This document shows positions 3,738-4,594 of a stretch of 4,787 nucleotides of DNA, in pieces. A program made the position numbers and the translations under genes. The stretch comes from a virus. Its lineage: Duplodnaviria; Heunggongvirae; Uroviricota; Caudoviricetes. Every line of letters begins with the position of its first letter. Position 1 is the stretch's first letter. The stretch is taken from IMG/VR virus record IMGVR_UViG_3300039368_000073. One strand, written 5' to 3'. The notes under the pieces are model-generated. The model was not told the origin of the DNA, searched no databases, and worked only from the letters and a program-made list of their open reading frames with translations.

Positions 3738-3828
3738 AAAACTCTCCTGTTATTTCGAGCAGAAGGGTAACAATAGTTACATAACAATGTCAACCATAGC
3801 AACATCACTTGGTAGTAACATTGGTTAC
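3738..3828. promoter_or_regulatory. divergent OR-like control region (PR toward cro, PRM toward cI) with operator palindromes
   Basis: This is the 91-bp gap between the divergent cro and cI starts. Two 14-bp palindromes GTAAC-N4-GTTAC lie at 3767..3780 and 3815..3828, centres 48 bp apart. A degenerate candidate third site lies near 3790..3803 (tcaaccatagcaac). On the - strand a TTGACA -35 hexamer lies at + coordinates 3793..3788; the matching -10 is weak (TTACCC or GTTACC) and overlaps the first palindrome. Confidence 0.65.
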
Positions 3829-4503
3829 ATGAAAAACACTATCAGCGAACGTATTCGGAATCGTCGAAAAGACGTTGGATTAACCCAACAGCAGGTTGCG
3901 AAAGCAATCGGCATATCTCGTGTATCCGTAACAAAATGGGAAAATGGCTCTTCAAAACCTGACGGTGAGAATTTGTATCTACTGTCAAAATTGCTTTCCA
4001 AATCTCCTGAATGGATTCTTTATGGAAAGGACTGTCACGATAAAACCGATGATCTGCGTCTGAATCAGTACCCTTACATTAGTGACAACATCGCCCGGTT
4101 GCCCGTTTTAACGTGGGAACAGGCTGGTTATTGGGATATGAGTTGTCCAGTAACCAAGATTCCTGGTATTAATAACTGGGTTGATGTCATGACAAAAACC
4201 GCTGAAAACTCTTTTTTATTGCATGTTGAGGGAGATGCGATGACAAACTCTAACGGCCTCCCAACCATCCCCGACGGATCTACCGTGCTGATCACACCAT
4301 GCTCAAGTAACATTAGAGAACTGGTGGGAAAAATAATCTTAATCCAATTGGAAGGAACGCCAAACGTAACACTAAAAAAAGTTGCGATTGACGGACCAAA
4401 CATCTATTTGTTGTCACTGAATCCGCTTTACAAACCCATCGAACTGAATGGTGGTTACACCATTAAAGGTAAAGTTTCACAAATACATCAATACTTAGAC
4501 TGA
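3829..4503 (+). CDS. cI: CI/C2-type prophage repressor: N-terminal XRE HTH plus C-terminal LexA-like (S24 peptidase) domain, 224 aa
   Basis: The translation from ATG 3829 (MKNTISERIRNRRKDVGLTQQQVAKAIGISRVSVTKWENG...) parallels the P22 C2 N-terminus as I recall it (MNTQLMGERIRARRKK...). The C-terminal domain aligns with lambda CI and P22 C2: Ala-Gly at the cleavage position (QAGYW), then EGDAMT where those proteins have GNSM/GDSM, then TLKKV. The ORF-track start at 3730 is a TTG that would overlap the cro start; the ATG at 3787 is an alternative. There is no obvious SD, so the transcript may be leaderless or weakly initiated as for lambda PRM. Confidence 0.88.
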   Translation: MKNTISERIRNRRKDVGLTQQQVAKAIGISRVSVTKWENGSSKPDGENLYLLSKLLSKSPEWILYGKDCHDKTDDLRLNQYPYISDNIARLPVLTWEQAGYWDMSCPVTKIPGINNWVDVMTKTAENSFLLHVEGDAMTNSNGLPTIPDGSTVLITPCSSNIRELVGKIILIQLEGTPNVTLKKVAIDGPNIYLLSLNPLYKPIELNGGYTIKGKVSQIHQYLD

Positions 4504-4508
4504 GTCAG

Positions 4509-4533
4509 AACCCGCATTCATTGCGGGTTTTTT
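4509..4533 (+). terminator. intrinsic (rho-independent) terminator downstream of the repressor gene
   Basis: Stem CCCGCA (4511..4516) pairs with TGCGGG (4522..4527) around a 5-nt loop, followed by T6 (4528..4533), starting 6 nt after the cI stop codon. It is unidirectional: there is no U-tract on the opposite strand. Confidence 0.75.
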
Positions 4534-4552
4534 ATGCCCTCAAATGTACCTT

Positions 4553-4594
4553 TTGCAACATTGTATTGACTCGAAAGGTAACTCTTGTTACCTT
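4553..4594 (+). promoter_or_regulatory. putative PL/OL-like early-left promoter with operator
   Basis: A 20-bp palindrome AAGGTAAC-TCTT-GTTACCTT at 4575..4594 shares the GTAAC-N4-GTTAC core with the two OR sites. A TTGACT -35-like hexamer lies at 4566..4571; 17 bp downstream is a weak -10-like TACCTT (4589..4594) overlapping the palindrome. The position after the cI terminator corresponds to lambda and P22 PL/OL. Confidence 0.5.

Follow-up and report, generated by a model that had tools for sequence, protein, structure and literature searches.

Operators of a probable P22-type repressor/Cro switch with GTAAC half-sites in a Qin-like prophage of Escherichia coli

Introduction

Which proteins read the three GTAAC palindromes that lie on either side of the repressor gene in a stretch of Caudoviricetes DNA? 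The stretch, referred to here as the window, comprises the 4,787 nucleotides of the IMG/VR virus record IMGVR_UViG_3300039368_000073 and holds three copies of GTAACNNNNGTTAC, a palindrome with GTAAC half-sites. A preliminary description had taken these copies for the shared operators of a CI/Cro switch, two of them in the right operator region (OR) and one in the left (OL). The comparisons reported here make it very probable that the palindromes are the repressor and Cro operators of a P22-type switch, and by its genes the window is the part of a lambdoid, Qin-like prophage of E. coli that governs immunity and replication.

Three palindromes and the genes between which they lie

Exact matches to the palindrome are found at 3767-3780, 3815-3828 and 4578-4591, just where they had been described, with no further copy in the window. 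None of 200 dinucleotide-preserving shuffles contained a copy (mean 0.00, maximum 0), and the analytic expectation is about 4787/4^10 = 0.005 per window. A tolerance of two mismatches adds only three matches, which are scattered in coding regions and near expectation. The 48 bp earlier given as the distance between the two OR copies holds start to start (3767 and 3815), and both of the 8-bp arms attributed to the third copy are present, AAGGTAAC at 4575-4582 and GTTACCTT at 4587-4594. The features that frame these sites are as follows.

3829-4503, plus strand: repressor gene, cI/c2-like, 224 amino acids, with HTH_3 and Peptidase_S24 domains
3737-3522, minus strand: cro gene, 71 amino acids, P22_Cro family (Pfam P22_Cro, 2.9e-16)
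4507..4531, plus strand: intrinsic terminator of the repressor gene, a 10-bp stem with T-run (-15.1 kcal/mol, z = -3.78), following the stop codon at 4501-4503

The cro and repressor genes are divergent and separated by a 91-bp gap, which is the gene layout of a lambdoid switch, and the neighbours that the proposed CI/Cro pattern calls for, a CI-type repressor and a P22_Cro-family protein, are both there. Two of the palindromes lie in the gap. The third lies 49 bp beyond the strong hairpin and T-run that follow the repressor stop codon, in agreement with its earlier placement past the cI terminator; a hairpin with a T-run is kept at this position in relatives.

Conservation of the sites in relatives of the repressor

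The perfect copies are designated OR1, OR3 and OL1 below, and two degenerate candidates are proposed in addition. The promoters PR, PL and PRM to which the entries refer are proposals that are taken up later.

3767..3780: OR1, perfect GTAAC-AATA-GTTAC, lying over the spacer of the proposed PR and over bases 1-3 of its -10
3790..3803: OR2 (proposed), degenerate TCAAC-CATA-GCAAC, with 6 of 10 half-site bases, overlapping the PR -35
3815..3828: OR3, perfect GTAAC-ATTG-GTTAC, which ends directly before the repressor ATG (3829) and holds the PRM -10 candidate TAACAT (3816-3821)
4575..4594 (core 4578-4591): OL1, AAGGTAAC-TCTT-GTTACCTT, inside the proposed PL promoter
4546..4559: OL2 (proposed), degenerate GTACC-TTTT-GCAAC, with 7 of 10 bases, shortly before the PL -35 and 32 bp upstream of OL1

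A set of 27 loci was anchored on the protein, with repressor identities of 42-88% to that of the window: 20 came from a protein search with one genome per species (42-52% identity) and seven closer relatives (52-88%) from an exact protein look-up. The genera of the 20 loci include Arsenophonus, Yersinia, Buttiauxella, Edwardsiella, Erwinia, Kluyvera, Rahnella, Klebsiella and Celerinatantimonas. Comparison of homologous prophages had been named beforehand as a check on the operator proposal, and the palindromes stand at the same positions in all 27 of these relatives, amid surrounding DNA that has diverged. All 20 of the more distant loci have the GTAAC-N4-G(T/G)TAC pair 48 bp apart, the first copy in L009 having two mismatches. 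OR1 is kept in position in 27/27 relatives, either as GTAAC-N4-G(T/G)TAC or with one or two mismatches, and Cro homologues adjoin it. OR3 is exact in 23/27 and directly precedes the repressor ATG except in L019, where it is 3 nt away, and in L032. The alignment of the OR region is gap-free. Conservation in it does not extend beyond OR1, OR3, a middle block, the Shine-Dalgarno sequence of cro and the repressor ATG; the 11 bp that lead from the middle block to OR3 show none.

Beyond the repressor gene, 18 of the 20 loci have one to three further copies, which lie 48-130 bp from the stop codon or, in L007, 1.1 kb from it; in the available DNA L019 has no site after the repressor gene and L002 only a degenerate candidate. 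The seven closer relatives follow the same pattern, bar L023, in which the available DNA shows no downstream site. The recognition-helix segment RVSVTKWE is invariant in 13 aligned homologues that range from 88% down to 43% identity. Two of the loci differ in what follows the repressor: L007 (Mangrovibacter; 2047-3138), whose OL sites lie 1.1 kb away, suggests an extra gene between repressor and OL, comparable to rexAB in lambda, and L023 (Salmonella; 2217-3360) has a 204-amino-acid open reading frame (ORF) after its repressor gene.

From the DNA pattern back to the repressor

In the reverse direction, viral contigs were scanned for the bare pattern GTAAC-N4-GNTAC-N34-GTAAC-N4-GTTAC, which occurs at at least 120 loci; the counts in this paragraph refer to the matches listed. 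In 115 of 120, a reading frame whose protein has the VTKWE helix begins at an ATG no more than 6 nt from the second palindrome. Three more have a near-identical helix, SRVAVAKWE, SRAAVAKWE or SRVTITKWE; the other two matches are unrelated, one being a repetitive coding region. The 115 loci encode at least 74 distinct repressors, mostly 40-50% identical to that of the window. Of the non-redundant loci, 90 extend far enough downstream to be judged, and each of these has one or more extra sites past the repressor gene, usually 25-100 bp past its stop. With one mismatch allowed, the OR and OL zones contain 298 sites, and 20 fall elsewhere in 889 kb, where about 26 are expected by chance. Since the palindrome occurs outside these zones only at chance frequency, it is not a dispersed sequence, and the refuting finding that had been named in advance, a sequence common outside regulatory regions, did not materialize. 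The palindromes exist as a non-random, positioned and conserved set that is tied exclusively to this repressor/Cro family.

Two proposed weaker sites

The preliminary description had left room for a degenerate middle site near 3790..3803, and this interval coincides exactly with a weaker dyad that relatives conserve at +23 from OR1. The commonest form of this middle block is CAAAC-AACA-GTTAC (48 of 108 sequences), and in close relatives its right half reads GTTAC (L029), GGTAC (L025), GTAAC (L023) or GTGAC (L028). At the other end, all relatives in one comparison of the downstream region have a second OL site with at most two mismatches 32-35 bp upstream of OL1, and second sites at this distance recur in other comparisons; neighbouring downstream sites are 31-35 bp apart in 25 of 28 pairs. 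The left half of the window's OL2, GTACC, is the reverse complement of GGTAC, a variant half-site of the relatives. Because the degenerate OR2 and OL2 stand where relatives carry sites, the operator set probably comprises OR1, OR2, OR3, OL1 and OL2, with OR2 and OL2 weak. The repeated dyads thus amount to two perfect and one degenerate in OR, and one perfect and one degenerate in OL.

Proposed promoters and working of the switch

Two promoters are proposed in register with the sites.

3764..3793, minus strand: PR (proposed), -35 TTGACA (3793-3788), 18-bp spacer, TG (3772-3771), -10 TACCCT (3769-3764)
4566..4594, plus strand: PL (proposed), -35 TTGACT (4566-4571), 17-bp spacer, TG (4586-4587), -10 TACCTT (4589-4594)

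We infer these assignments from comparison with other loci. The PL register recurs in L006 (TTGACC-17-TACATT) and in P22 (TTGACC-17-TAAATT), each of which a consensus promoter scan flags, and Qin has a PL-like promoter TTGACC-17-TAATCT; in relatives the OL1 homologue lies between TTGAC(A/C) and TACATT. The proposed PR resembles PL in form and leaves a 20-nt leader that holds the cro Shine-Dalgarno sequence. From there it would drive cro, ydaT and the replication genes O and P. A P22-like position for PR, its -10 next to OR1 in the direction of cI, was also considered; it yields TGTTAT and GTGATG in the window, falls on sequence that is not conserved in relatives, and is less likely.

Translation of the repressor appears to be of another kind. 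The 14 nt before its ATG are the operator, free of a Shine-Dalgarno sequence, and every cro gene has AGGAG. The left half of OR3 with the first two bases of the centre has the form TAnnAT in the window (TAACAT), P22 (TAAGAT) and Qin (TAGCAT) alike, and the AT that opens the centre is conserved in OR3 only; on these two grounds the hexamer is proposed as the PRM -10. The repressor transcript probably starts at the ATG or within 2 nt of it, so that the message would be leaderless or nearly so. The paaR2 transcript of prophage CP-933P has been reported to be leaderless (PMC8630535), and that of lambda cI, cited in the same paper, is a textbook case.

From the same arrangement we infer binding itself, the order of occupancy and any cooperativity. 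Repressor dimers, and Cro dimers, would read GTAAC on either side of an uncontacted 4-bp centre. Repressor on OR1 and the weak OR2 would cover the -10 and -35 of PR and turn off cro, ydaT and the replication genes; on OL1 and the weak OL2 it would cover PL and turn off the early-left operon, which in intact copies consists of ydfA/B/C, dicB, exo, xis and int. OR3, placed directly before the repressor ATG and over the likely PRM -10, would be filled by Cro first, or by repressor in excess, and repressor synthesis would stop, in keeping with the usual logic of CI/Cro switches.

Weighing the alternatives

Several points count against this account. A literature search returned no binding, footprint or reporter data for this repressor, and L023 shows no site after its repressor gene in the available DNA. 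The consensus scan reported no promoter in 3500-4787: PR and PL each depend on a TG-extended -10 hexamer of the form TAnnnT, PR was missed because its -10 matches only 3/6 bases, and the assignments lean on L006 and P22 for want of a hit in the window. Given a start at the ATG, OR2 would centre near -32 of PRM and not at the -42 of lambda, so that positive autoregulation through OR2 is doubtful. OR2 and OL2, finally, match only 6 and 7 of 10 bases and may be non-functional, and the left half of OR2 coincides with the PR -35 TTGACA, which could alone explain part of the conservation of OR2.

These weak matches and the overlap with the -35 are what one would expect if OR had two sites and OL one, with 3790-3803 and 4546-4559 decayed or never functional and no cooperative middle site, an arrangement we consider rather unlikely. 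It would also fit the closest relative, L026, whose OR2 has a right half still more decayed, ACAAC, and the 933W repressor, for which non-cooperative binding at adjacent sites has been reported (PMC3317979). It fits less well with the fact that both candidates stand exactly where relatives have better sites: L025 has two perfect OL sites 35 bp apart, the OR2 of L029 is TCAAC-CATG-GTTAC, and 61 of 108 sequences have GTTAC on the right of OR2, a conservation for which no promoter element accounts. Weakness is in any case a property of OR2 in P22 and lambda, where it is an intrinsically weak site, and this counts in favour of the five-site set. There is only a slim chance that the palindromes are read by just one of repressor and Cro, or by a third regulator such as the CII-like YdaT or a host factor. 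Both genes always travel together and the comparison is for that reason unable to separate CI from Cro, and YdaT, a DNA-binding protein, is encoded next door; yet the motif of the CP-933P YdaT differs (PMC9986795) and has its one-mismatch copy elsewhere, at 3515-3532, and some site-bearing relatives lack YdaT, with a Phage_CP76 protein (L032) or a small ORF (L030) in its place. The recognition helices of repressor and Cro have, moreover, changed in parallel. In P22 and in lambda the two proteins share their operators, which again speaks against a single reader.

That the repeats are kept for a reason other than protein binding, as promoter elements or as small RNA or DNA hairpins, or that they arose by chance, is very improbable. 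At PR and PL the proposed -10 does take its first three bases from the right half-site, and a -10-like hexamer lies mostly within the left half of OR3, but both halves are conserved and only one of them overlaps a promoter hexamer. Chance is excluded by the shuffles (0/200), stems of 5 bp with 4-nt loops are too weak as hairpins, and the motif tracks a single recognition helix. The retention of both halves with a central 4 bp free to vary is the signature of a site for a dimeric helix-turn-helix protein.

Comparison with known switches

The closest model for this switch is that of P22 and Qin and not that of lambda: the operator core of both consists of 5-bp half-sites about an N4 centre, and both set the third site against the repressor ATG. 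In the P22 immC region, which has OR1-3 and OL1-3 (comparison locus L022), the OR sites are ATTAAAGAACACTTAAAT (620-637), ACTAAAGGAATCTTTAGT (643-660) and ATTTAAGATGACTTAACT (668-685), with the c2 ATG at 686; their starts at 0/+23/+48 (23 + 25 = 48 bp) equal those of the window at 3767/3790/3815. In both, the third OR site stands directly before the repressor ATG with no Shine-Dalgarno sequence, OR3 of the window being 2 bp closer to it. At PL the P22 OL1 fills the spacer and gives the first 3 nt of the -10, the same register as in the window, and the OL2-OL1 spacing is 35 bp as against 32 bp. At PR the two differ, in that the proposed PR of the window is about 21 bp nearer cro and has OR1 over the -10, not over the start site. 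The P22 operator consensus is ATTTAAGATATCTTAAAT, in which TTAAG half-sites flank an uncontacted central 4 bp, and in c2 Val33 lies among thymine methyls with Gln37 at the inner bases (PMC5175364). The window shares the plan of a 5-bp half-site, 4-bp centre and 5-bp half-site, and its GTAAC has the central TAA in common with TTAAG and differs at the two outer bases; the earlier suggestion of a distinct immunity specificity is borne out to this extent. The recognition helices compare as follows.

P22: repressor SNVAISQWE; Cro SDAAVSQWK
Qin: DicA SHVSVSQWE
Window: repressor SRVSVTKWE; Cro SHVAVVRWK
Distant relatives: repressor RVSVTKWE, invariant; Cro SHPAVCRWG

Val33 is kept in the window repressor. 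Relative to P22, repressor and Cro have changed at the same helix positions, 2 and 7 (N to R and Q to K in the repressor), changes that would fit the change at the two outer bases of the half-site. The window Cro is 47% identical to P22 Cro and scores 59 bits against a 30-bit cutoff for Pfam P22_Cro, which places it in that family, but with neither TTAAG nor SNVAISQWE the window falls outside P22 homoimmunity.

With dicA/dicC of Qin, a cryptic prophage of E. coli K-12, the window shares the divergent genes and the PL-like operator register, and intact copies of its prophage share the downstream genes ydfA/DUF1391, ydfB, ydfC and dicB. The half-site of Qin is TTAGT/TTAGC, its OR sites are spaced 25/25 (OR1-OR3 50 bp, compared with 48 bp), the two bases CT separate its third OR site from the ATG, and its DicA, of 136 amino acids, lacks the S24 domain of the window repressor. 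The window has neither the TTAG(T/C) half-site nor the SHVSVSQWE helix of the DicA/DicC specificity.

Lambda resembles the window in its tripartite OR between divergent genes, an OL beyond the repressor gene, an S24 C-terminal domain and a repressor start with no Shine-Dalgarno sequence. It differs in its 17-bp operators of unrelated sequence, in a Cro of a different fold family and in the placing of the sites, since OR3 of lambda lies between the PRM -10 and -35, with OR2 at about -42, whereas OR3 of the window lies over the -10 and against the ATG. The GTAAC half-site also differs from the operators of lambda and 434. CP-933P of E. coli O157:H7 likewise has Cro followed by YdaT in the cII position, and its PL and PR have matching hexamers, as proposed for the window (PMC8630535). 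Its repressor is PaaR2, which has no S24 domain of the window kind, and its operators are 18-bp inverted repeats with the consensus GTTTAGTAA; both differ from the window's, and identity with CP-933P was rejected on that account. A literature search for the operator sequences and the motif, which was not exhaustive, found none in a phage context, and the sole match to the motif, a regulator of nitrogen-oxide metabolism, is unrelated. As P22 and Qin share the layout with other half-sites, the window switch is best classed as a new specificity of the known P22 c2/Cro type.

The repressor: start codon, catalytic serine and allied types

The repressor (HTH_3 3.5e-17, Peptidase_S24 1.8e-16) is 36% identical to P22 c2 (E = 2e-43) and belongs to its family. 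Its structural matches in the PDB are the N-terminal domain of P22 c2 (1adr and 2r1j, E about 1e-12) and lambda cI (3bdn, E = 2e-14). The NCBI annotation of identical DNA begins the protein at ATG 3787 and names it a 238-amino-acid 'LexA family protein', as do many database entries. That start was rejected, since in many relatives the frame ahead of the conserved ATG is broken by stops or offers no start codon. The N-termini of the relatives, of P22 c2 and of DicA align at ATG 3829, which, with the upstream frame closed in most relatives, is taken as the start; ATG 3787 is probably a widespread mis-annotation. The earlier placing of two palindromes between the divergent starts is upheld by this comparison, though the NCBI start would enclose the copy at 3815. 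ATG 3787 itself overlaps the PR -35, and its 14 extra codons are the operator region (3787-3828).

Within the S24 domain, the motif that reads GNSM in lambda and GDSM in P22 is GDAM, the catalytic serine being replaced by alanine (codon GCG at 4238-4240, within 4229-4249). The lysine general base (LKKV) and the Ala-Gly cleavage site (QAG) are retained, so that the protein has the fold of the LexA-like self-cleaving repressors and not their nucleophile (GxSM). Alanine occupies the catalytic position in 36/37 window-type copies in viral contigs and in the large protein clusters P0001 and P0004; serine occupies it in 68/68 repressors of the related type. The variants LexA S119A and lambda cI S149A are the basis for expecting no self-cleavage. 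With its catalytic serine replaced, the repressor is predicted to have lost self-cleavage and is probably not SOS-cleavable, and RecA would be unable to inactivate it.

E. coli also has a second repressor type, about 44% identical and with the same recognition helix (P0026, P0029, P0032, P0036 and P0037), which presumably has the same operator specificity. Among the matches listed, repressors that share the GTAAC sites and the helix span many genera of Enterobacterales and beyond. It is conceivable, if somewhat doubtful, that the at least 74 distinct repressors with GTAAC and SRVSVTKWE, 35-50% identical to that of the window, form a single cross-immune group in which the dominant E. coli allele is permanently on and blind to SOS.

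The prophage and its neighbouring features

The remaining genes read from the window are those downstream of cro.

3525-3100, minus strand: YdaT-family protein, in the cII position
3077-2115, minus strand: O-like replication protein
2108-1362, minus strand: DnaC/IstB-like ATPase

DNA identical to 3500-4713 is found in 702 of 5426 complete E. coli genomes. In phage genomes, megablast matched only the flanks and left the immunity region with no match; the best repressor match among phage records is 42% (Pantoea phage AH07), and P22 c2 stands at 36%. Past the third palindrome the intact copy L001 carries DUF1391/ydfA, ydfB, ydfC, dicB, an exonuclease gene, xis and int, which make up a Qin-like early-left operon; N (gene 24) is not present after PL in this lineage. 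In the window, the left end of IS629, an insertion sequence of the IS3 family, starts at 4713 (TGAACCGCCCCGGG; window 4713-4787), 119 nt past the proposed PL -10, and copies with no IS629 interruption run on into ydfA/DUF1391. Because IS629 has inserted between them, the early-left operon is severed from PL in this copy.

At the junction of cro and ydaT, TTGATTTTCATGAATCAT (3515-3532) is one mismatch from the YdaT operator TTGATT-N6-AATCAA, with about 0.01 chance matches expected per window. The YdaT of CP-933P binds that sequence, as footprinted, at the end of cro (PMC9986795), and 3515-3532 is probably the site of YdaT, the CII equivalent, in a PRE-like promoter.

Several E. coli phages with non-matching repressor genes have a PL leader 95-97% identical to that of the window (4594-4712). 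In distant relatives (L005-L021) the leader has a hairpin some 40-75 nt after OL1 (alignment columns 101-122), with a covarying 5-bp stem and the conserved loop GGCGTATGAAG; 83.5% of cells are paired, there are 19 double changes, and 0/500 shuffles did as well. The window leader lies outside that hairpin register and folds no better than shuffles (z = 0.07). A put-like antiterminator RNA of the HK022 kind was considered for the 120 nt after PL and set aside in view of that z value and a weak RNAalifold consensus. An Rfam scan of the window (E <= 1) gave no match in the operator and leader regions, and the lone sub-threshold match, Trp_leader, is the repressor terminator. A boxA-like CGCTCTTTAA comes further along the PL leader in L030 and L032; of these two loci, L032 has both the hairpin and an N gene.

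Significance

The general understanding of CI/Cro switches is unchanged by this locus, which is ordinary in principle. GTAAC stands as a third natural specificity, beside TTAAG of P22 and TTAGT of Qin, on an otherwise fixed scaffold, and the GTAAC series would be useful for the recognition code of c2 and Cro helices and for orthogonal repressor/operator pairs. The part likeliest to matter biologically is the alanine in place of the catalytic serine, which bears on whether the prophage can be induced; should the tentative cross-immune group be real, the dominant E. coli allele would act as a shield for its host against the whole group and not as an inducible switch. The site map itself offers a testable account of how a very common E. 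coli prophage may stay silent.

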